From Bacteroidia bacterium (GTDB taxonomy: Bacteria; Bacteroidota; Bacteroidia; SpSt-205): a DNA stretch of 64,000 nt. Of the stretch, positions 36,729 to 47,950 are shown piece after piece. The notes beneath the pieces were generated by a model. It made no database searches and was not told the origin of the DNA. It was given only the letters and a program-made list of their open reading frames with translations. The position numbers and the translations under genes were made by a program. Location of the stretch: contig JANWZJ010000002.1 in the NCBI GenBank assembly GCA_025054525.1, forward strand, positions 393 to 64,392, read 5' to 3'. Within the stretch, counting starts at the first letter, position 1. The number at the start of each line of letters is the position of its first letter.

Positions 36729-38000
36729 TTACATTGGTTCATAGCTGTGGTGAACACTCTCCTCTAAATAGGGATGATGCTGGGGTAGCAGAGCGGGCGC
36801 TTTCTCAAGCTGTTTAGCCGCTAACCATAGAAAGCCTCCAATCCCCAGGAGAAAGAAGCCTACCTCCATAAGGCCCAGGCCACCTGCTTTTCCTGCTACG
36901 GAGGGCATAACCACCATAAACGTGTCCAGCCAGTGCGTAAAGAGCAAAACTCCTGATACAATCCCCAGCCATGTGAAGTTTCGCTTGATGCTGGCGCTCA
37001 TAAGCCCAAGCAGCGGGAAGATGAAATTCATGACCAACGTGATAAAGAAGATAGGAACATACTGAGGATTCACATGCGCACGGATACGCTGATAAAACCA
37101 GAAAGTCTCCTCGGGGATGTTTGAGTACCAAATGAGCATAAACTGCCCATAAAAGATATACGTCCAAAAGATACTAAATGCAAAGACGAATTTACCCAAG
37201 TCGTGGATATGGCTCTCGCTAACCCCACTGAGATAACCATTTTTCTTCAGGATAATCGCAGTGAATGTAATGAGACAGAGCGTGGTTATCCAAAGATTAG
37301 CGAAATTATAGACGGCGAACATCGTACTAAACCAGTGGGGTGAGGCACTCATGAGCCAATCCCAGCTTGCTACAGACCAGCTTAGCGCAAAGAACACGAT
37401 AAATCCGCCGGCAAGCCGGCGCAGATTGTGGAAGTTGCGCACATCCCCGGTGGCATCTAATGTTTCCCAGTTGCGCACGAATCCCCGCCAGAAAAGAAGC
37501 CACCCCCCTAAAATAATCACCATACGAACGATGAAGAAGGGAAGGTTGAGGTAGCCACTTTTGTGCTGAAGGACCTCGTCTTTAGAGACCACATCGCTGT
37601 GCGTCCATTCATATAAAACCCCTGAGAATGCTATAGCCACCACCGCCAAAAGACCCGCAGTAATAGGTAAGAGCCGAGCGAAAGTCTGTGGTATTCTTTG
37701 TAGCATCACGTACCAGCTTGCATTAGCGGCATATCCTACCGCCAGGAAGAACAGAGAAAGAATAGGGATGCCTAAGAGATACATAGAAGAGATGAGAAGG
37801 TTTGCCGAGAGGCGGCTGAGCCAAGGGGCTGCATGATGACCTTCTGCATGTTCGTGAGTACCCATCATCTGGCTGATAAGCCCAGCTATGACTAGAAGTC
37901 CTCCCACCCCCACCATCAAGGTTACCCACCTACGCAAATGAGGGGGGAAAGTAAAGCGTTCTTTCCAGTTTACTGTATGAGAGGTATGCCCGTGTGCCAT
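36729..38000 (-). CDS. actF: Alternative complex III subunit ActF (NrfD/PsrC-like membrane subunit).
   Basis: Polytopic membrane protein paralogous to ActC, in the terminal position of the act cluster. Confidence 0.7.
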   Translation of the reverse strand: MAHGHTSHTVNWKERFTFPPHLRRWVTLMVGVGGLLVIAGLISQMMGTHEHAEGHHAAPWLSRLSANLLISSMYLLGIPILSLFFLAVGYAANASWYVMLQRIPQTFARLLPITAGLLAVVAIAFSGVLYEWTHSDVVSKDEVLQHKSGYLNLPFFIVRMVIILGGWLLFWRGFVRNWETLDATGDVRNFHNLRRLAGGFIVFFALSWSVASWDWLMSASPHWFSTMFAVYNFANLWITTLCLITFTAIILKKNGYLSGVSESHIHDLGKFVFAFSIFWTYIFYGQFMLIWYSNIPEETFWFYQRIRAHVNPQYVPIFFITLVMNFIFPLLGLMSASIKRNFTWLGIVSGVLLFTHWLDTFMVVMPSVAGKAGGLGLMEVGFFLLGIGGFLWLAAKQLEKAPALLPQHHPYLEESVHHSYEPM

Positions 38001-38003
38001 AGG

Positions 38004-38609
38004 TTATTGAGATTGTTTAGTGGAGTTGGCTTCTTCCTGAAGGCCTTGAGCTCGTAGCTGCTGCACATATAGAATAACCTTCCAACGCTCTTCAGGGGTA
38101 AGCTGAGAAGCATGAGAACCCATGAGGTTTTTACCATAGGTGATACTATGAAACATCTTCCCTTCGGGTAAATCTTTGAGCTGAGGCCCATAGTAAGAAG
38201 GTACTTGGGGATATTTCCCTTTCTCTACGATAGTTCCCCTACCGTTTCCTTTTTCGCCGTGGCAGTGAATACAATAATACTCATAGAGTTTCTTCCCTTC
38301 ACTTATGTTCTCAGGCGTGGGAGGGAGGGGGTTTTTGAGCTTTTTGCCTGCTTCCTCATATCCTTCATTCGTATTGGGGAATGGATAGACGAAATCTGCC
38401 TTACCCTTAGGTACGGTACCTGCCACGGGCTCTCTAACATGTTTGCCATCTGAGGAGTAGGTATAGTAGTCGGTCTGAGAATAAGGGTCCAAAGGAATAG
38501 AGTGATACATCTGAGGAGCGTATTCTATGCCTGTATCTCTGGGGTCAGAGGCAGCACAGCCCCAAAGGATGAATGCAGTAAGCGCTAATAACCAGGAGTA
38601 CCCTATCAT
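38004..38609 (-). CDS. actE: Alternative complex III subunit ActE (monohaem cytochrome c, lipoprotein-like).
   Basis: Single CIHCHG haem-binding motif, an N-terminal signal with Cys, and correct operon position. Confidence 0.7.
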   Translation of the reverse strand: MIGYSWLLALTAFILWGCAASDPRDTGIEYAPQMYHSIPLDPYSQTDYYTYSSDGKHVREPVAGTVPKGKADFVYPFPNTNEGYEEAGKKLKNPLPPTPENISEGKKLYEYYCIHCHGEKGNGRGTIVEKGKYPQVPSYYGPQLKDLPEGKMFHSITYGKNLMGSHASQLTPEERWKVILYVQQLRAQGLQEEANSTKQSQ

Positions 38610-39112
38610 ATCTCTATGATCTTGATGTCAGTAGCACCAGTTTTACGAAAAACCTCCTGAGCCCGATCCCATGCGCTTTCTTCGGCAATCGCCACGACCA
38701 TCGCGTCATCTGTCTGACGCACATCATATACTTTAGCTTTTCTACCAGGATAAAGGCGATTGACGAATAGATAGGAGAAAAACATAAGCACTCCTGCAAA
38801 AAGCACGGTAAGCTCAAAGGTTACGGGAATAAAGCTCGGAAAAGGCAAGAAGGATTTCCCCCCTATATTGACACGCCAATCTATGTTATACATGTAGGTC
38901 TGCATGCTGAGAGCCGTGAGCGTACCCATCGCTCCATACACGAAGGCTGCGTCGGGCAAGCGAGATTTGCGCAGATGAAGAGCAGAGTCCAGACCATGTA
39001 CAGGAAAGGGCGTGCATACTTCATGGATAGGCACTTTCTCTCGCTGGAGAGCTTCCACACCTACAAGTAACTTCTCCTCATCTTCATATAGCCCGATAAG
39101 GTACTTCGCCAT
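38606..39112 (-). CDS. actD: Alternative complex III subunit ActD.
   Basis: At about 168 aa it is a membrane-associated protein between actC and actE, consistent with ActD. Confidence 0.6.
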   Translation of the reverse strand: MAKYLIGLYEDEEKLLVGVEALQREKVPIHEVCTPFPVHGLDSALHLRKSRLPDAAFVYGAMGTLTALSMQTYMYNIDWRVNIGGKSFLPFPSFIPVTFELTVLFAGVLMFFSYLFVNRLYPGRKAKVYDVRQTDDAMVVAIAEESAWDRAQEVFRKTGATDIKIIEI

Positions 39113-39118
39113 AGACTA

Positions 39119-40573
39119 TCAAGTTGTAGAGGATTCAGGGTTCATGGCAGGTTGAAGCACGGGAGCGAAAGCACCCTCCCGCTTTTTAGCTTGATAGGTT
39201 TCCCAGGAGAGTCCTGCATATTGATCGCCCGAAGTCTTGAGAATGCTCTTTGTTTCAGCGGCTGCGATTACAGGCAGGAATCGCGCAAACAAGAGATACA
39301 GCGTGAGGAATAGCCCAAAGCTGCCTACCAATATCGTAACCTCCACCCAAGTAGGCGTGTACATGCGCCAAGAAGAAGCCAAAAAATCGCGATGTAGCGA
39401 GGTTACGATAATCACAAAGCGCTCAAACCACATGCCGATATTCACGAAGATAGAGATGACAAAAACGAACCATGGACTGCGACGCAGCTTTTTGAACCAG
39501 AAGACCTGGGGGATAAAGAGATTACAAGTTACCATAGCCCAGTAGGACCACCAGTAAGGACCGAAGGCTCGGTTTAGGAAGATGTAGCGCTCCCAGTAAG
39601 AGCCAGAATACCACGCAATAAAAAACTCCGTAGCATAGGCAAAGCCCACCATCATACCGGTAGCCAAGGTTACTTTTGCCATGGCGTCTATGTGCTCCAG
39701 AGTGATGTAATCCTTGAGGTCAAGCACTTCTCGGGTAATGATCATGAGTGTGAGCACCATTCCGAAGCCGGAGAAAATAGCGCCTGCCACGAAGTAAGGA
39801 GGAAAAATGGTAGTGTGCCACCCAGGTAGGATAGAGGTGGCAAAGTCAAAACTCACGATAGAGTGCACGGAAAGCACCAGCGGCGTAGAGAGCCCTGCCA
39901 GTACCAGAGATACCGCTTCAAATCGTTGCCATTGTTTGGCACTGCCGGTCCAGCCGAAAGAAAGGATACTATAAGCTATGTGGGCAAAGCTACCAGGGCG
40001 AGCCCTATCGCGCACCATCGCCAAATCAGGAATAAGGCCCGTATACCAAAAGAGCAAGGAGATGGTGAAGTAGGTGCTGATTGCGAAAACATCCCATAGC
40101 AGAGGAGAGTTGAAGTTGACCCAGAGGGAGCCGTGAGTGTTGGGCAGGGGCAAAAACCAGAACGCTAGCCATGGACGCCCCATGTGAATGATGGGAAAGA
40201 GCCCTGCACAAATAACTGCGAAAATCGTCATTGCTTCGGCAGCCCGATTAATCGCCATGCGCCAGCGCTGCCGGAAAAGCAAAAGAATTGCCGAGATAAG
40301 CGTACCCGCATGCCCGATACCTATCCAGAAAACGAAGTTCGTAATGTCAAAAGCCCAGCCTACGGTTTTGTTGAGGCCCCAAGTACCGATGCCTACCCAT
40401 ATGGTATAAGCTATCGCCGAAAACCCAGCAAACATGACGAGGGCCGTGAAACCCGTAGTGAGGTACCATTTCCAGCTGGCAGGTCCCAAGATGGGAGAGA
40501 CTAAGTCATCCGTGATTTTGCGGTAGGTTTTCCGCCCTGTGATAAGCGGTTCTCGTATAGGGCTCTCAAACAT
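39119..40573 (-). CDS. actC: Alternative complex III subunit ActC (NrfD-family quinol-interacting membrane subunit).
   Basis: About ten TM helices, polysulfide-reductase NrfD-like, following actB. Confidence 0.8.
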
Positions 40574-40575
40574 AG

Positions 40576-43500
40576 TTATGCGGGTTTAGGTTGTGAGATT
40601 TCTTCGTTGCGGACTTTGACCATATACCGGATGGAGGGGCGAACGTTGAGCTCAGCAAGTGCATAGTAGCCACGCGGTTCTTGGGAGAGGCGACTGACAA
40701 GGCTTTCGGGATCGTTGAGATCACCGAAGACAATAGCGCCAGTTGGGCATGCCTGCTGGCAAGCAGTTTTGACATCTCCCTCTTTCAGGGGACGCTGCTG
40801 CTTCTTTGCTTCCAGCTTAGCGGCTTGGATACGCTGCGTACAAAAGCTGCACTTCTCCATTACGCCCCGAGCCCGCACGGTTACGTCAGGATTAAGAACC
40901 ATGCGGCCCAACTCATCCACAGGATTGAAGACCCAGCTCTCCGAGTTAGTATAATCAAACCAGTTGAAGCGTCGTACCTTGTAAGGGCAGTTGTTAGCAC
41001 AATAGCGGGTACCTACGCAGCGGTTATAGACTTGTTGATTGATGCCTTCGGAGCTATGGGCTATAGCCAAAACAGGACAAACCGTCTCACAGGGGGCATG
41101 ATCACAGTGCTGACATAGCATAGGTTGGAAAAATGCCCGCGGAAAGTCTTCTGGGGATGCTGCGGGAAACTCTTCTGGTTTGCCTGTGTGCCCTACCGTG
41201 GAGGTAAAGTAGCGGTCAATCCGAATCCAGTGCATGTCCCGACCACGACGCATTTCGTCCCGACCTACGACAGGGATATTATTTTCGGCGACACAGGCCA
41301 CTACGCAAGCCCCACAACCTATGCACAGATTGAGGTCAATCGCCATGCCCCAACGGTGTCCAGGTTGTGGGTGCTCTATCCACCACAGATTGATAAGTTC
41401 AGGCTCTTCGTGATTGCCGGCACGAGGATTTTGCTTATAGGCGCTGAGCGTCGTCTCCCGAATATACTCCCGTCCTACATAGGTCTCCCACTGCTGGATT
41501 CGAGCCAGCTCATAGGTACCACCTGTTTTTTGAAGTTGTATAGCAGGTAGGAAACTTATGCGATTACCAGATTCAGTTATTTGGAGGAAAGGGTAAATGT
41601 TTTGTCCAACCCCCACGGCTGCTCGTCCACCTGTTGTGCGGCCGTACCCCATCGCCACCCCTATGGTGCGGGGCGCCGTTCCCGGCAAAACATACACGGG
41701 TAGCTCTACCGACTTATCTCCTGCCGTAATCCGAATGACATCATTCGTCTTGAGTCCCTGCTCGCGTGCCAAAAGCGGAGAGATGACGGCATAGTTATCC
41801 CAAGCCACACGAGATACAGGGTCTGGCATCTCTTGAAGCCAGGGATTACCCGCATTCGTGCCGTCGCCTATGGCCACTTTCTCATAGACGTACAAGGTTA
41901 GAGGCACTTCATCCTCCATAGAAGGAAGCTGAGCAGCCCACTGAACAGGGTTCCAGTTTGCTTTGGGAGCAGCCGAGACGGAGGTCATATCCACTACACC
42001 TCTCTCCAGAGCATGCAGCCAGAATGTCTCAGCGTTATCAGTAGGCAGAGGAGGCTCAGTGGATACCCAGAAAGCCTGCTGCTTGCCTTTCTCCTTGTCT
42101 CGGAGGTAGGCCTGGTAGGCAGGGTACACAGACTTTTCCCAGAAAGCCTTCAGATAATCCAGTGTGCTCTCACCGCGCCCAAGCCATGCCAAGAGTATCT
42201 CTGCAAAAGAACGAGTGGAAAATATGCGGGCAATTGTAGGCTGCTGCAGCGTAAATAAGCCTTCATAAGGTTGCGCATCTCCCCAGCTCTCTAAATAATG
42301 ATCCTCGGCTAAAATGTATTTGCAGCGCTTGGCTGTCTCATGAGCATGAGTAGAGATTGCGACAGTAATGGGGGATTTTTCTATCGCTTGTGCCACCCTA
42401 TCGCTCTGGGGATGATCATAGAGGGGATTAACCTGATGGAAAATAACAGCACCCACCTTACCTTCCTGCGCATCCTTAAGAAAGGTTTCAAAATCCGCAT
42501 CTTTTCCTGCACGCAAGTAGCAGCCTGGGTCTACATATAAGGTATTTCCGTAACTCTCTAAGAGCAAGTTGATACCTACGACTACAGCTTGAAGCACAGG
42601 GATTTGGGCATGGGCAACTACGAGTGCTTTGCCTCGGCTTTCCCAGAGCTTCTTGGCTACATGTGATATATCACCATTGGCCGTGTCCCATTTATCGCTG
42701 TTGAGTGAGGGCTGTCCAGCCAACTCAGCTATGCGATTATAGAGGTTGATGATGGCACGGCGCACCTCTTGGGGATTGAGCGCTATACGGCGGTCCGCAC
42801 TGAGTCCCGTAATCATGGGTACAGACTCAAACTGCACATGATAAGATATATCATTGCGCCCACCGTACAACTTGCGGTTCTCAGACCACTGACGCGCGAA
42901 AGTGGTGGGGTCTATCCATGTACCTAAAAAGTCAGCATTGAGCCCCACTACCACCTGCGCTTTATCAAAGCGGTAAGTAGGGAGTACCCTACGACCAAAA
43001 ACCGCCTCATGGGCACTCAAAATAGCATCATATGAAATGGCTGAGTACTCCACATGACGAGCATTTTTGAGGGAGCCCTGCCATGCTTGAATAAGACTGC
43101 GCAAACTGGGACTTACCACAGGAGGGGTTATGAGATAAATCAGCTTCCCTTGGGTATCCTGCGCCTTTAGCTGCTCCATTAGGGCACTTCCAAGTGCAGA
43201 CCAATCTGACTCTTTGCCTTCTATGAGTGGCTTTTGAAGCCGAGTGTGGTCATACAAGGAAAGAACAGAAGCCTGTCCCCGTGGATGAGTACCACCTCCT
43301 TGGGGCGAATAAGATGGGTTGCCTTCTATCTTAATAGGACGACCCTCCCGTACCTTGACAAGGACTGATTGAAAAATTTGACCATCAAAGTAGGAGGAGG
43401 CATAATACGTGGGTATCGTGGGAAGGTGTTCAGCTGGTTTTTTGACGTAAGGCAGCGCATACTTGACAGGGGTTTTTTCACATGCTGCTAATACCGCTGC

Positions 43501-43602
43501 ACTGAGCGTAATCCCACACCAGCGCAGGAAATCCCTGCGATCTCCTCGCAGGGATTCGGAGAGTAGCTCTTCTACAGGAATATCGCGAGAAAGCTCTTGC
43601 AT
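40576..43602 (-). CDS. actB: Alternative complex III subunit ActB (fused molybdopterin-oxidoreductase-like and 4Fe-4S ferredoxin-like domains), Tat-exported.
   Basis: Tat motif RRDFLRW, a large MopB-like domain, and C-terminal Cys clusters ([25 protein letters not shown], CxxCxxRIQ). 1008 aa. Confidence 0.85.
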
Positions 43603-43603
43603 C

Positions 43604-44782
43604 TTAGTAATGACATTTGGAACATTCTAGTCCGCCCAACTTTTCCACAGTTACCTCTTTCTCCTTGTAGTAAGCATGAAGCCGTGCATAGTAGGGATTA
43701 GCTGTTAAGTCCACTTTTGTTTGGCGATGGCAGTTGATACACCAACCCATGCTTAGGTCGTTATATTGATACACCTCTTCCATTTCTTCTACAGGTCCGT
43801 GGCAAGTCTGACAAGCTATACCTCCTACCTTCACATGCTGGGCATGACTGAAATACACATAATCAGGCAGGTTGTGAATCCGAACCCATTCTATGGGCTT
43901 GTTTTCTTGATAAGAAGCTAAGATTTTGCCTATTTCCTTATTCCCATAGCGGGAACCCTCTTGAATGTAAGTGTGGCAGTTCATGCATATGTTGGTGGAG
44001 GGGAAAGTAGCCGACTTCCCCTTCTCTACTCCGATATGGCAGTATTGGCAAGCGATTTTGTATTCGCCAGCGTGAGTCTTATGAGAGAAGGCAATGGGCT
44101 GTACGGGCTGATAGCCCTTATGAAGTCCTACGGAACGAGCCTTTTTGATAGTAGCACTACAGAACCAGAGAAAAGCCACAATCCCAGCTATTCCCCAGAA
44201 GCGAGGCGAAGCCATAAAGTTTCCGACCTGCTGGAATATACCTCGTTCCGAGGACTCTTCTTTTTCAGGGCGCAACACCCGAGAAAGCGATAGCGTAGTG
44301 ATAAATAAAGCGATAGCGATAGCCCCCAGTGCTATAGTTAGCACCCATAATAGAGGGCTTGTATCGGAGGGGGCACTTCCGCCTGCTGAACCCGCACCGC
44401 CACCACCCGCAGCACCTGAAGCAGTGTTGGCAGTTTCTGCGGCTGCACTCTCTGCCTTGATGTAGTCCAAGATAGACTTAATCTCATTGGGGGAGAGCGC
44501 CGTGAATGCAGTCATCACGGCTTTATTGTACTCCTCGTATAGCTTCTTAGCATAGGCCGAATTTTTGAAGTTGCCGTTGATATAGGCTTGGGAATTCTGG
44601 ACAAACTTGATGATCTCTGCTTCATCCCCCCAGCGTTCATGGACGCCTTTGAGAGCGGGACCGACTACTCGTCTATTGACAGCGTGACAGGAAGCGCAAT
44701 TGGCCTGAAATAAGGCTTTTCCATCTTGTGCCCACAGGAGTAGCCCTAAACCGATGAGCGCCCTACGCATAGGCATTTTCAT
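43604..44782 (-). CDS. actA: Alternative complex III subunit ActA (pentahaem cytochrome c) with an additional N-terminal monohaem class-I cytochrome c domain.
   Basis: Six CxxCH motifs: CASCH in the N-terminal domain, then CQYCH, CMNCH, CQTCH, CINCH and CSKCH. A signal peptide, a Gly/Ala-rich linker and one TM helix separate the two parts. Confidence 0.8.
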   Translation of the reverse strand: MKMPMRRALIGLGLLLWAQDGKALFQANCASCHAVNRRVVGPALKGVHERWGDEAEIIKFVQNSQAYINGNFKNSAYAKKLYEEYNKAVMTAFTALSPNEIKSILDYIKAESAAAETANTASGAAGGGGAGSAGGSAPSDTSPLLWVLTIALGAIAIALFITTLSLSRVLRPEKEESSERGIFQQVGNFMASPRFWGIAGIVAFLWFCSATIKKARSVGLHKGYQPVQPIAFSHKTHAGEYKIACQYCHIGVEKGKSATFPSTNICMNCHTYIQEGSRYGNKEIGKILASYQENKPIEWVRIHNLPDYVYFSHAQHVKVGGIACQTCHGPVEEMEEVYQYNDLSMGWCINCHRQTKVDLTANPYYARLHAYYKEKEVTVEKLGGLECSKCHY

Positions 44783-44801: not shown

Positions 44802-44809
44802 CAAAGGTA
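44802..44809 (-). promoter_or_regulatory. Candidate Bacteroidetes sigma-A -7 element (TAnnTTTG) for the act operon.
   Basis: The minus-strand sequence TACCTTTG lies about 20 nt upstream of the actA start codon, with a TTG about 22 nt further upstream. The motif is short and occurs by chance elsewhere, so only its position supports the call. Confidence 0.3.
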
Positions 44810-44817
44810 ATGGAGTT

Positions 44818-45468
44818 TCATTTACGCGGAACAAGTGCCCTTAGAGAGTCTATCTGTTTCTGAAGGCTAATGACATAGAGAGTAAGCTCCTCTACCTTCT
44901 GCAAGAGAGCAGCTTGCGTGGTAAGAAGGGGTACTCCCGATTTGTTTATCTCTTCCCCAGAAGGCATCCCAGGCAAATGGCGATGACGCTGAATATACTG
45001 CTCTACCTCATAAAGAGAGCGCAACTCATATCCCGGAGCGAATACATAATCTGGCCAGCGTAGATTTTTGTCCTTAGCGTAAATCTCGGTGACAGTAATG
45101 GGAGCCTGAAACTCAAAGGGTGCGGAGACTATACCTCTACCATCTCCATAGATAATAAACCTATCGTAATAAGCATCATCCACTTTTTGGACGACGGCGA
45201 TGGCTTTGGTGGTCTGGGCTTTTTCACCTCCTATGGTAGCCTGCAAAGCATAACTCCATTCCTGATTAGGCTCATAGCTCACAAATAAGCCTCCCCTGCC
45301 AGTTCCCAAGCCGACTTGTAGAGGTTCTCTGAGGATATAGGATTTCTGTTCGGGGTCATACTCTAAGTTACTCGAGCAGCATGCGTTGATTGCTACAGAG
45401 GACAGTACAAATACGGCGCTACGCATCACTGCTTTGTGCATGCCGCAAATATACGAGCTTCGCAGCAT
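44818..45468 (-). CDS. Small signal-peptide/lipoprotein-like protein with a C-terminal Peptidase_S74 (chaperone-of-endosialidase / tail-fibre) domain. The start is probably the internal Met at 45426.
   Basis: The C-terminal block WPDYVFAPGYELRSLYEVEQYIQRHRHLPGMPSGEEINKSGVPLLTTQAALLQKVEELTLYVISLQKQIDSL matches the conserved intramolecular-chaperone domain of the Bacteroidetes tail-fibre-domain proteins. The N-terminus MRSAVFVLSSVAINAC is signal/lipobox-like. Confidence 0.55.
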   Translation of the reverse strand: MLRSSYICGMHKAVMRSAVFVLSSVAINACCSSNLEYDPEQKSYILREPLQVGLGTGRGGLFVSYEPNQEWSYALQATIGGEKAQTTKAIAVVQKVDDAYYDRFIIYGDGRGIVSAPFEFQAPITVTEIYAKDKNLRWPDYVFAPGYELRSLYEVEQYIQRHRHLPGMPSGEEINKSGVPLLTTQAALLQKVEELTLYVISLQKQIDSLRALVPRK

Positions 45469-47950
45469 GGGAAAGGCACTTATCCTCTGGCTGCAGTTCG
45501 GGTCTTTTCCCTTTGCCTACAGAGAAGATGTGCAAGAGATACGACTTTTCCCTGACTACGGGGAAGGTGTGTGGATAGGGTGTCGCACCTTGAGACAGAC
45601 ACGCAGCGGGGTCTTTATCTACTATGTAGATGCAGTGGGCAACTGGCTCTTTGGAAAAGCTGGTATTTGCCTGTCTTGTCGCGACTCCGCCTCGGTCATA
45701 CGATGGGACGCCGTAGCAGGAGAAAAAAACTTACTGTACGCAGTGAGGCAGACCCGTCATACTATTCGGCTAAGCGCTATAGAAAGGACAGGCAAGCTCC
45801 ACTGGGAACACACCTTACCTGCAGAAGAAGGAGAGTTTCGGCTTTTAGCACATCCAAGCGGGGGCATTTTACTGCTTCAAGCCTCTGAGAAACAACTTAG
45901 CCTCAAAAGCTGGGACAAACAAGGCGCCCTTCGGTATAACGTGGATGGGATAGTCTCCGAACGGATGAAGAGACATCCGCTTCTGCTATCTGTAAACTTA
46001 GAAGGGTTCTTTCTCCTATGGGAAGAGTTTGACGGGACGAAATGGCAGGCCGTTTTGCAGAAATGGTCATGGGAGGGCAAAGCCTTAGCAGCCCCTACCC
46101 CCCTTTCCGGCTTTGCCCACAGTGTAGAAAGAGCCCAGTTTATCAGCGATGGCTTCGGAGGGGTGCTCGGGGTATATGAAGCCACTTCCTTATACGGCGC
46201 TGGAAAGGATTTACACTTCGTCCGATATAGCCGAAGCGGACAACGAATCGTGGAAACGCCAATCTGTACAGAAGCGGGAGACCAGCAAAACCCTCGCCTA
46301 TATAAACGAGGCACAGAGCTTCTGGTCACCTGGGAAGACAATCGGCAACAAGATTGGGATATTTATTTCCAACGGTTAGATATTCGTACAGGGCAAGCCC
46401 TCCTCCCTAATCAGGGCACGCCACTGGTACGCCTGCCAGGCGTACAGGAGTCGCCTGAACTGCTCTTGGACTATTTCCAAAACGAAAGTATAGTAGCTTG
46501 GGTAGATTATAGGCATCTGCAAGGTGATTTATACATGCAGAGGGTTTCTGCGGAGGGGAAGCCACTTTGGGAGTTTGCGGGGCGCCCCTTAGTAGCGAAC
46601 CCTTACCAGCAAAAGAAGCTACAAAGTGCCCCTCATGATTTGAGACACTTCTGGATAGCCTACGCTGAAGAGCATCCTTATGAAGGAACGCATGCCTGGG
46701 TAATACTACTTTCGGTAGAAGGGAAAGAGCTCTTTCGGCGAAGGCTTGGCGGCAATACCCAGACCAGCACCCCAACTATTGGCGAAATAACCTGCCAGCC
46801 TTGGAAAGAAGGGAAATTAGTGGTATGGACGGAAGACCGAGACTCGGCGGGTCTATTCCAGTTATATGCCCAGTATTTGAAAGCCAAAGGAGAGCCTCAG
46901 TGGTTACCAATGGGATTGCCCTTGGCTCCCCAGCCCCAACTCCACCAAAAAGAGCCTCTCTTAGCGACTCGGGGGGATACCGCTTGGATTCTATGGAAAG
47001 GAGAAGAGTCAGAAGTGGAAAGCGACCTCTTTGCCCAAGCGATTACGGTGGAGGGTAATCGCTTATTCCTGCCTAATCCTCTCCCCGTATGCATAGCTGA
47101 TAGGGTACAACATGAAGCGCGCTGGCTCTCCAGTTCTTCCGCCCTATATGCCTATTGGAGCGATAGCCGCAGCATGGAGGAAACGGGCTTTGACCTGTAT
47201 CTGCGCAAAATCGTACCGTTAGCGCCTGAGCAAGGCTGGCAAACTCGTCTCGGCTTTCAGAACACCTCTTATCTCCTGTCTGCAAAAGCAGAGTATTATC
47301 ATCATTTCTGGCAAGAGGAGGAGGGAAGGCGCTATCGCATTTTCTACGGGAGAGGTCGGGTGGGAGAACCCTATCCTGTTCAGGCGCTCATTCCTAATGG
47401 AGGGGCACAGCGCTTCCTGCATGCAGAAGTACATCCTCAAGGGTATGCTTATGCTGCTTTCTGCGAAGAGTCGCCAGGTCCGTATCAGCAAGCCGTACAC
47501 TGCTGGGTCATAGACCCAGAAGGTAGAGTAGCTGCCCATTTTCGCTCGCCGCTGGGACATACGCATCACCTCTATCCCCGGGTATTCTTGCTTTCTGATC
47601 AGGAAGTCGCCTTCACCGCCATAGCACAAAGCAAAACTGGCAGCTGGGAACTCCTTTATCTAACTGTCTCCCCCTCAGGAGAACTCCGGGAAAAAGGCAT
47701 CCTCCTCTCCCCCATTCCTGAAAAATGCCAGTGGCACCTCCTCAAAGACGCTTCGGGCTACTGGCTCTTCCTACAAGCAGGAGATACCCTCTGGGTTTAT
47801 ACGGGAGAGAGGCTTTCTGCCCTGCATAGCCAGACCCGCCCCTTCATTACTCCCAAAGCATACCCAATCCTCTACGAGGGCCGCGCCCACCTCTTTTTGT
47901 GGGATAAATCCCAGCATCACTGGCAGCTTCTACCCCTTAGTAGGCAATAA
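45386..47950 (+). CDS. Large beta-propeller protein with divergent PD40/TolB-like repeats, of unknown function. The true start is possibly at 45440 or 45470 (MGKALILWLQFGSFPFA looks like a signal peptide).
   Basis: Recurring modules of the form W-[DE]-D/x-R…D-[IL]-Y-x-Q-R…G-x-PL, for example WEDNRQQDWDIYFQRL, WVDYRHLQGDLYMQRV, WTEDRDSAGLFQLYAQY, WSDSRSMEETGFDLYLRK. Confidence 0.45.
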   Translation: MIATEDSTNTALRITALCMPQIYELRSMGKALILWLQFGSFPFAYREDVQEIRLFPDYGEGVWIGCRTLRQTRSGVFIYYVDAVGNWLFGKAGICLSCRDSASVIRWDAVAGEKNLLYAVRQTRHTIRLSAIERTGKLHWEHTLPAEEGEFRLLAHPSGGILLLQASEKQLSLKSWDKQGALRYNVDGIVSERMKRHPLLLSVNLEGFFLLWEEFDGTKWQAVLQKWSWEGKALAAPTPLSGFAHSVERAQFISDGFGGVLGVYEATSLYGAGKDLHFVRYSRSGQRIVETPICTEAGDQQNPRLYKRGTELLVTWEDNRQQDWDIYFQRLDIRTGQALLPNQGTPLVRLPGVQESPELLLDYFQNESIVAWVDYRHLQGDLYMQRVSAEGKPLWEFAGRPLVANPYQQKKLQSAPHDLRHFWIAYAEEHPYEGTHAWVILLSVEGKELFRRRLGGNTQTSTPTIGEITCQPWKEGKLVVWTEDRDSAGLFQLYAQYLKAKGEPQWLPMGLPLAPQPQLHQKEPLLATRGDTAWILWKGEESEVESDLFAQAITVEGNRLFLPNPLPVCIADRVQHEARWLSSSSALYAYWSDSRSMEETGFDLYLRKIVPLAPEQGWQTRLGFQNTSYLLSAKAEYYHHFWQEEEGRRYRIFYGRGRVGEPYPVQALIPNGGAQRFLHAEVHPQGYAYAAFCEESPGPYQQAVHCWVIDPEGRVAAHFRSPLGHTHHLYPRVFLLSDQEVAFTAIAQSKTGSWELLYLTVSPSGELREKGILLSPIPEKCQWHLLKDASGYWLFLQAGDTLWVYTGERLSALHSQTRPFITPKAYPILYEGRAHLFLWDKSQHHWQLLPLSRQ

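Follow-up and report, generated by a model that had tools for sequence, protein, structure and literature searches.

A small lipobox-bearing protein of a Bacteroidia bacterium ends in a module of a very large fibre-associated family distinct from Peptidase_S74

How should one read a very short bacterial protein that appears to end like a phage tail fibre? The question is raised by a 216-amino-acid (aa) open reading frame (ORF) on the minus strand, at 44818..45468, of a 64,000-nucleotide (nt) stretch of contig JANWZJ010000002.1 from a Bacteroidia bacterium (assembly GCA_025054525.1), the whole of which we call the window. The original prediction, made from the sequence, described a small exported protein whose C-terminal 75 residues form a chaperone-of-endosialidase domain (Peptidase_S74). 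We find an ordinary-looking small lipoprotein that nevertheless carries an abundant, undescribed fibre end-module, which is not Peptidase_S74, and whose gene occupies an unusually fixed genomic setting.

The ORF, as given in the ORF list of the window, is a real, conserved gene. The motifs by which the domain had been recognized (WPDYVF, EVEQYI, HLPGMPS and LLQKVEELTLYVISLQKQI) are present at residues 138-206 of the 216-aa ORF, and the orthologues, together with the profile score given below, put chance out of the question. A 202-aa product 100% identical to the window protein has been called elsewhere, and 15 orthologues with 43-70% identity were identified among metagenome proteins and proteins of metagenome-assembled genomes. 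All can be aligned over their full length, beginning at the position of M10 or M15 (216-aa numbering); they are 196-209 aa long, apart from three with a duplicated unit (246-248 aa). The first ATG, at 45468, is unlikely to be the start codon because a promoter-like box sits between it and ATG 45441. Thus, the predicted ORF exists, but translation probably begins at ATG 45441 or ATG 45426. The gene and the parts of its product are as follows.

44818..45441, minus strand: coding sequence of the small putative lipoprotein, 207 aa from ATG 45441 (202 aa from the alternative ATG 45426; the mechanical ORF extends to 45468), with stop codon TGA at 44818-44820.
45376..45441, minus strand: signal peptide and lipobox I-N-A-C followed by an invariant second Cys (Cys30 and Cys31, 216-aa numbering, at 45376-45381).
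45058..45375, minus strand: short beta-rich body, residues 32-137, comprising one shaft-like unit and a neck strand and containing VGLGTGRGGLFV, EWSYAL, TKAIAV, IYGDGRG and PITVTEIYA.
44821..45057, minus strand: conserved C-terminal module, residues 138-216, comprising the WPDYVF strand, a helix (L..EVEQYIQRH), the HLPGMPS loop, a short helix and a long helix.
44833..44928, minus strand: long amphipathic helix within the module, residues 181-212, corresponding to the AlphaFold2 (AF2) helix 167-198 in the numbering of the 202-aa product.

The C-terminal module is not Peptidase_S74. Hmmscan of the window protein against Pfam returned no family whatever at E<=10, PF13884 included, and NCBIfam and PHROGs returned nothing meaningful. 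None of 119 homologues matched PF13884 at E<=0.1 and four more module proteins were also negative, while a positive control, a Spirosoma soli protein encoded beside module-bearing genes (L035:2582-4231, minus strand), matched it at E 6.9e-10. A precomputed PF13884 flag was carried by nearly all of 120 proteins retrieved with the S74 profile and by none of the module proteins. For profile-profile comparison with hhalign, the S74 profile was built from Bacteroidota-type S74 proteins. A shallow version of it aligned with the module over 8 columns at 14.8% probability. With 120 module and 103 S74 sequences the probability was 83.7%, but over only 37 columns, all of them in the terminal coiled coil, and once the coiled-coil tails had been trimmed on both sides it was 0.1% (E 0.61). 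Within the module, the long helix alone shows any resemblance to S74 or coiled-coil families. True S74 proteins have invariant S, D, R and K (SDxRxK), whereas the aligned region of the module reads W-P/A/S-D-Y-V-F, with no conserved Ser or Lys upstream, so that the Ser/Lys autoproteolytic dyad is absent.

If the module were nonetheless an S74 domain, the C-terminal 75 residues would trimerize the protein and then cut themselves off through that dyad. Such a reading would account for the shared layout, a fibre body capped by a conserved, helical end-domain that finishes in a coiled coil, and it draws on the untrimmed hhalign probability, on several S74/ICA-named phage proteins among weak fold matches in BFVD (E 0.03-0.5), on the chaperone-bearing T5 pb1 among the weak fold matches (E 0.44) and on the existence of true S74 mini-proteins in Bacteroidota. 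Against this stand the lack of a PF13884 match where the control scores clearly, a profile signal confined to coiled-coil columns, and the absence of the dyad ahead of the module, and we consider the S74 reading exceedingly improbable. Self-cleavage is not expected, because the dyad is absent, similarity to S74 does not go beyond the coiled coil, and the module can occur in internal copies (described below).

It seems that the earlier reader took two distinct C-terminal domains for one; both are found, in the same genomes, at the ends of homologous fibre bodies. The prediction of a conserved end-domain common to many fibre proteins stands, as the module ends non-phage Bacteroidota fibre-like proteins and, rarely, phage ones; the family was wrongly named. 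The result corrects a plausible-looking mis-annotation, and such proteins should not be named S74 or self-cleaving tail-fibre domains.

To what family, then, does the module belong? Scored against a profile of 63 diverse homologues, the C-terminal ~80 aa of the window protein give 117.8 bits (E 5e-38), and D140, F143, K191, E193, E194 and L195 are the sole residues that never vary across the 63 members. The window module is 45-63% identical to members from many orders and, as in these, its position is terminal. A phmmer search of 1.84 billion cluster representatives (50% identity) returned 33,407 matches at E<=1e-3 and 22,735 at E<=1e-10, counts that rest on a single query sequence. In genomes (one per species), at least 584 coding stretches encode the module, spread over all Bacteroidota orders, Ignavibacteria/Kapaibacteria, Rhodothermales, Chlorobiota and Fibrobacterota. 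We found no entry in Pfam, NCBIfam, PHROG or the PDB sequences that matches the module family, and literature searches on the module motif, and on Bacteroidota proteins of the S74 or tail-fibre type, yielded no relevant work. The locus exposes a very large domain family, with more than 22,000 clusters at 50% identity and no solved relative. Within the 64-kb window, a search with the family profile detected no second copy or paralogue.

In each of 85 loci the module is C-terminal, on proteins ranging from 80 to >1000 aa, and its genes are frequently arranged in tandem arrays of up to 8. Pedobacter frigoris encodes eight such genes in tandem (L076, 2607-10333) and a Cyclobacteriaceae genome six (L044, 5617-11602), all of about 240-390 aa with variable bodies and a near-identical end-module. 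The bodies are fibre-like: YadA_head repeats are found in those of some members (E 1.9e-12), matches to trimeric autotransporter adhesins (TAA) are also seen, and there are weak T4 gp34/gp36 matches among the homologues. Also, the body of the true S74 protein used above as positive control is homologous to module-ended bodies, with E down to 1e-31, so that S74 and the module are alternative ends of the same kind of fibre. At that Spirosoma soli locus the S74-ended gene adjoins a module-ended gene (L035:4456-6279, plus strand), the bodies of both consist of homologous YadA-like repeats, and the pair exemplifies a natural end-domain swap. Some single proteins (P0241-P0246) contain two or three internal units of neck and module, spaced about 160-175 aa apart (in P0242 the modules lie at residues about 415-485, 575-645 and 740-810), indicating that the module is not a strictly terminal element.

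The module thus resembles S74/ICA (endosialidases, T5 pb1 and the Bacteroidota 'tail fiber domain-containing proteins') in forming a conserved C-terminal end, with a coiled-coil finish, on variable fibre-like proteins, and in occurring on cellular Bacteroidota proteins as well as phage fibres, on homologous bodies and even at the same locus. It differs in having no sequence or profile similarity beyond the coiled-coil tail, no SDxRxK dyad and no significant structural match, and in its ability to recur internally two to three times per chain.

Phage members are rare. A tblastn search of 50,697 deposited phage genomes gave no match, and the module is encoded on 15 of 2.9 million IMG/VR contigs. 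In the three of these that we examined, the gene lies among phage structural genes: directly after a baseplate wedge gene (L090:5613-8249), with the major head gene on one side and the tail sheath gene on the other (L095:4998-6836), and downstream of a large tail protein gene (L086:7788-8453). This tail-fibre position in uncultivated phages shows that the module can end virion fibres.

The lipoprotein-like signal noted in the original prediction is real: in every orthologue a hydrophobic stretch is followed by [LIVWT]-x-[AGS]-C-C, which in the window protein reads ...VAINAC|C (the motif was read from the alignment). This is the lipobox of a signal peptidase II substrate, so the description as a small exported protein holds, and the protein is probably lipidated. 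The lipobox is limited to the orthologue group; the wider module family has leaders of the signal peptidase I type (ordinary Sec). The beta-rich body is conserved among the orthologues, doubled in P0007-P0009, and homologous to the stretch that directly precedes the module in the longer members P0018, P0027, P0083 and P0247. Overall, the architecture common to the orthologues is a lipobox, Cys-Cys, one short beta-rich unit and the ~80-aa module (WPDYVF...HLPGxPS...KVEELTLYVI). At about 185 mature residues, the window protein would be the smallest natural construct for study of the module.

In the AF2 monomer model (202-aa numbering), the module has a pLDDT of about 90-97, with helices at 138-148, 157-163 and 167-198, and the body contributes strands at residues 74-100 with pLDDT >90. 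Read from the sequence, the heptad pattern is unbroken through the long helix (residues 181-212), with V192, V199 and I206 at a and L188, L195, L202 and L209 at d. Searches of PDB sequences with the whole protein and with the module profile produced chance or coiled-coil matches only, and no solved structure was significantly matched by the model in fold searches. The sole fold match with E <0.001 was A0A5J6VKV2 in BFVD, an uncharacterized 719-aa protein from a Megaviridae environmental sample (E 3.8e-4, probability 1.00, 125 columns, 21% identity). The matches below significance are nearly all trimeric fibres, including HylP, T5 pb1, lambda and T4 fibres, and S74/ICA-named phage proteins. A Peptidase_G2-type chaperone was considered and rejected, with a single weak BFVD match (E 0.19) and no Pfam match.

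Given the family, architecture and model described above, we favour, with moderate confidence, the view that the product is a small envelope lipoprotein, the minimal member of the fibre family, in which the module serves as a retained neck and coiled-coil assembly unit. Processing by signal peptidase II would yield a mature protein of ~185 aa, lipid-anchored at Cys30, with one short beta-rich shaft unit and a neck strand followed by the ~80-aa module. The latter is predicted to be a compact helical unit in which two short helices support the WPDYVF strand, and this strand leads into the 32-residue heptad helix. As a beta-to-alpha neck continued by a coiled coil, it may join chains, most likely into a trimer, and seed assembly of the upstream body. 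It would in this way fill the architectural place, and probably the role, of an intramolecular-chaperone or trimerization end-domain. The module is presumably retained and not cut off, because the Ser/Lys protease dyad is lacking, and the product may sit on the cell envelope or within it as a short oligomeric stub held by its lipid anchor. The presence of two to three internal units of neck and module in some chains speaks for a structural unit and against a sorting tag at the terminus. A trimeric state is suggested by the YadA-head bodies and the fibre-like fold matches. Collagen-like repeats, looked for as a separate sign of trimers, are present in none of 385 family proteins. Knowing whether the module serves in assembly, in anchoring or in the docking of a partner would help to explain how these bacteria make surface fibres with no Proteobacteria-type anchors.

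Several observations weigh against this view. All fold matches other than the Megaviridae protein are below significance, and the oligomeric state is proposed from a monomer model and the sequence. Val/Ile at a and Leu at d make up a classic dimer-leaning zipper that would fit a dimer equally well, and several members weakly match dimeric zipper families. The N-terminal half of the model has moderate confidence (pLDDT 51-83, residues 1-70). The fibre-stub view explains neither the route to the surface of members without a lipid anchor or a tag for type IX secretion (T9SS), nor the strict linkage of the gene to a divergent 827-aa gene and the act operon (described below). Finally, the module retains ~50% identity across phyla, with its invariant D, F, K, E, E and L, which exceeds what a plain oligomerization helix needs and hints at a conserved partner or ligand.

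Alternatively, the module may serve mainly for docking or anchoring, by binding an envelope component that is conserved in the Fibrobacteres-Chlorobi-Bacteroidetes (FCB) group (for instance a glycan, peptidoglycan or an outer-membrane protein). Cellular fibres would then stay on the cell via the module, the few phages would bind their host via it, and the window protein, with a lipid anchor at one end and the docking module at the other, would be an envelope tether. The exceptional conservation is consistent with this idea, as are the hypervariable bodies, the restriction to the FCB group, the position of the module at the distal C-terminal end of the phage proteins in fibre position, and the fact that most members bear just a Sec signal and none of the known devices for surface anchoring. 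However, the model, a small helical unit with a long helix, offers no recognizable binding fold, copies recur internally within single chains, no single partner gene is conserved across the loci, and the C-terminal Lys of a Braun-type link is not conserved among the orthologues. We therefore regard a docking domain as unlikely, if still worth weighing.

Comparison with known envelope and fibre proteins helps to place the proposed assembly unit. The family is like the trimeric autotransporter adhesins (YadA) in that some members have YadA_head repeats and in that a beta-to-alpha transition followed by a coiled coil corresponds to neck and stalk; repeated units of body and module resemble their head-neck-stalk arrays. 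In contrast to these adhesins, the helical module itself forms the terminus, the TAA neck motif families are not matched, and the window protein is probably anchored by an N-terminal lipid. The YadA-type C-terminal beta-barrel anchor was not matched in the window protein or in 119 homologues, where YadA_head in a few members was the only YadA-type match, and a trimeric autotransporter was rejected for lack of this defining barrel. Like the Braun lipoprotein of Enterobacteria (Lpp), the window protein appears to be small, anchored in the envelope by a lipid and structured mainly as a parallel coiled coil, but the sequences are unrelated and the window protein additionally has a beta-rich unit and a helical module of globular form. 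The C-terminal Lys that links Lpp to peptidoglycan is not conserved (the window protein ends ...PRK, its orthologues R, E, CR, RR, CK, H, Q etc.), and an Lpp-like tether was rejected on this ground. The module may also be compared with the T4 fibritin foldon and other trimerization nucleators, small C-terminal units that register chains, a role we infer for the module; the foldon, however, is a beta-hairpin propeller and has no sequence relation to it. T9SS cargo was likewise rejected, as the defining C-terminal sorting domain (Por_Secre_tail or CHU_C in Pfam) was not found in the window protein or in family members and is carried only by neighbours.

What, then, does the position of the gene say about its role? 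The relevant features are these.

43604..44782, minus strand: actA, which opens the alternative complex III (ACIII) operon actABCDEF (36729-44782), the products of which match multihaem cytochrome c, Fe-S, NrfD, ActD and cytochrome c families in Pfam.
45467..47950, plus strand: divergent gene for an 827-aa protein of no recognizable family, with repeated W-x-D-x-R...D-x-Y-x-Q-R motifs.
45446..45453, minus strand: Bacteroidetes-type -7 box TATATTTG (TAnnTTTG), 4 nt upstream of ATG 45441.
44802..44809, minus strand: second -7 box, TACCTTTG, within the 35-nt gap between the small gene and actA.

As the original prediction had it, the small gene lies between the act operon and a large divergent gene, with no phage genes nearby. 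The distance to actA is 35 nt, and a Pfam scan of 20 neighbouring products revealed nothing phage-like. The neighbourhood is chromosomal housekeeping, with actABCDEF and genes for release factor, enoyl-CoA hydratase, pseudouridine synthase, GDP-mannose dehydratase and others. The arrangement is conserved. In the window and nine other orthologous loci, a divergent gene of ~825-840 aa is followed by the small gene with its lipobox and, where the contig is long enough (9/9 loci), by actA-actB-actC. The large divergent genes are orthologues of the 827-aa gene (40-47% identity) in the 6 loci checked by blastp, and size-matched genes without a Pfam match (826-830 aa) in 3 more. Beyond the large gene the neighbours vary, and include MutL, carbamoyl-phosphate synthase, M16 peptidase and PdxA. 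Within the clade, ActC is 89-94% identical and ActA and ActB 70-76%, compared with 43-54% for the small and 40-47% for the large protein. A prophage remnant was rejected in view of the housekeeping surroundings, the synteny in 10 lineages and the lack of a match in the deposited phage genomes. The invariable place beside the ACIII operon provides a concrete, testable link to the envelope.

We did not detect a Pfam or PDB-sequence match for the 827-aa protein; its N-terminus is weakly signal-like and its repeats are possibly propeller blades. Its start codon and that of the small gene are only about 25-40 nt apart, and both promoter regions must consequently overlap coding sequences. The motif TAnnTTTG, which we take to be a promoter box from the published Bacteroides consensus, has only two matches on either strand between 44700 and 45600, namely the TATATTTG and TACCTTTG boxes. 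The first of these, together with its spacing, is kept before the orthologous genes in three loci (L001, L003 and L005), and the sequence of the 35-nt gap, including the second, is conserved in all orthologous loci examined. We infer that the TATATTTG box is the small gene's own promoter; its 4-nt spacing from the ATG suggests a leaderless or near-leaderless mRNA. The TACCTTTG box is likely the promoter of the act operon, with its upstream part inside the 3' end of the small gene. The small gene would accordingly be transcribed from a box right at its start codon, adjoining but separate from the act promoter. A scan for sigma-70 promoters and terminators found nothing, although the sigma-70 model does not apply to Bacteroidetes promoters.

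The constant position immediately upstream of actA, in the window and 9/9 sufficiently long orthologous loci with differing outer flanks, raises the possibility that the small protein is an accessory subunit or assembly factor of ACIII in this clade. ACIII is a periplasm-facing complex with lipid-anchored subunits, and the 35-nt gap lacks any terminator-like hairpin. On the other hand, the gap contains a separate, conserved act promoter box and the small gene has its own, the small protein evolves much faster than ActA, ActB and ActC, and its family comprises >22,000 clusters, with act genes near the module gene in 0/74 non-orthologous loci. No act-family Pfam match was found in the window protein and, to our knowledge, published ACIII structures list no such subunit. 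The synteny could also persist simply through the overlap of the act promoter with the 3' end of the small gene. Thus, we consider an ACIII subunit improbable.

Outside the orthologue group, the module genes keep other company. In 20 of the 74 non-orthologous loci, the module gene is directly upstream, on the same strand, of a gene for a protein of 1000-2000 aa with SpvB, FG-GAP, TcdB_midN and RHS domains, which looks like a recurrent operon linking module fibres to Rhs/Tc-type toxins. These loci with TcB/TcC-like neighbours include L009, L021, L031, L067 (4002-9896), L081 (6340-12237) and 15 others; in five of them a 485-aa gene resembling an OMP beta-barrel also precedes the module gene. A protein with Peptidase_C13 (legumain-like) and a T9SS C-terminal domain (CTD) is encoded immediately downstream in 19 of the 74, mostly in Bacteroidales (e.g. 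L079:10544-12295).

These neighbours, and the constant divergent pairing with the ~827-aa gene in the window and all 9 orthologous loci, might indicate that module proteins are adaptors that hold or present the neighbouring large protein at the envelope, be it the 827-aa protein, a TcB/TcC-like Rhs protein or C13-peptidase T9SS cargo. The same-strand gene order in the 20 Rhs loci, together with the 19 C13 loci, would agree with such a function, but the neighbours come from unrelated families, many loci have neither type of neighbour or only tandem module genes, and the link is one of adjacency. An adaptor function seems to us doubtful.

On a wider view, we tentatively propose, as a possibility short of a likelihood, that the module represents an undescribed class of fibre end-domain of the FCB group, either a non-proteolytic replacement for S74 or a device for docking on the cell's own surface. 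It would be used by tens of thousands of secreted proteins, in operons linked to Rhs/Tc toxins and by some phages. A minimal, lipid-anchored copy may have been recruited in one Bacteroidia clade into a fixed unit with the 827-aa protein and the ACIII operon, where it could organize or tether envelope complexes.

The first product of that operon, ActA (392 aa), carries an additional monohaem cytochrome c domain at its N-terminus (residues 18-109) and, ahead of its multihaem part, a linker rich in Gly, Ala and Ser, and the same domain list is found in the orthologous loci.

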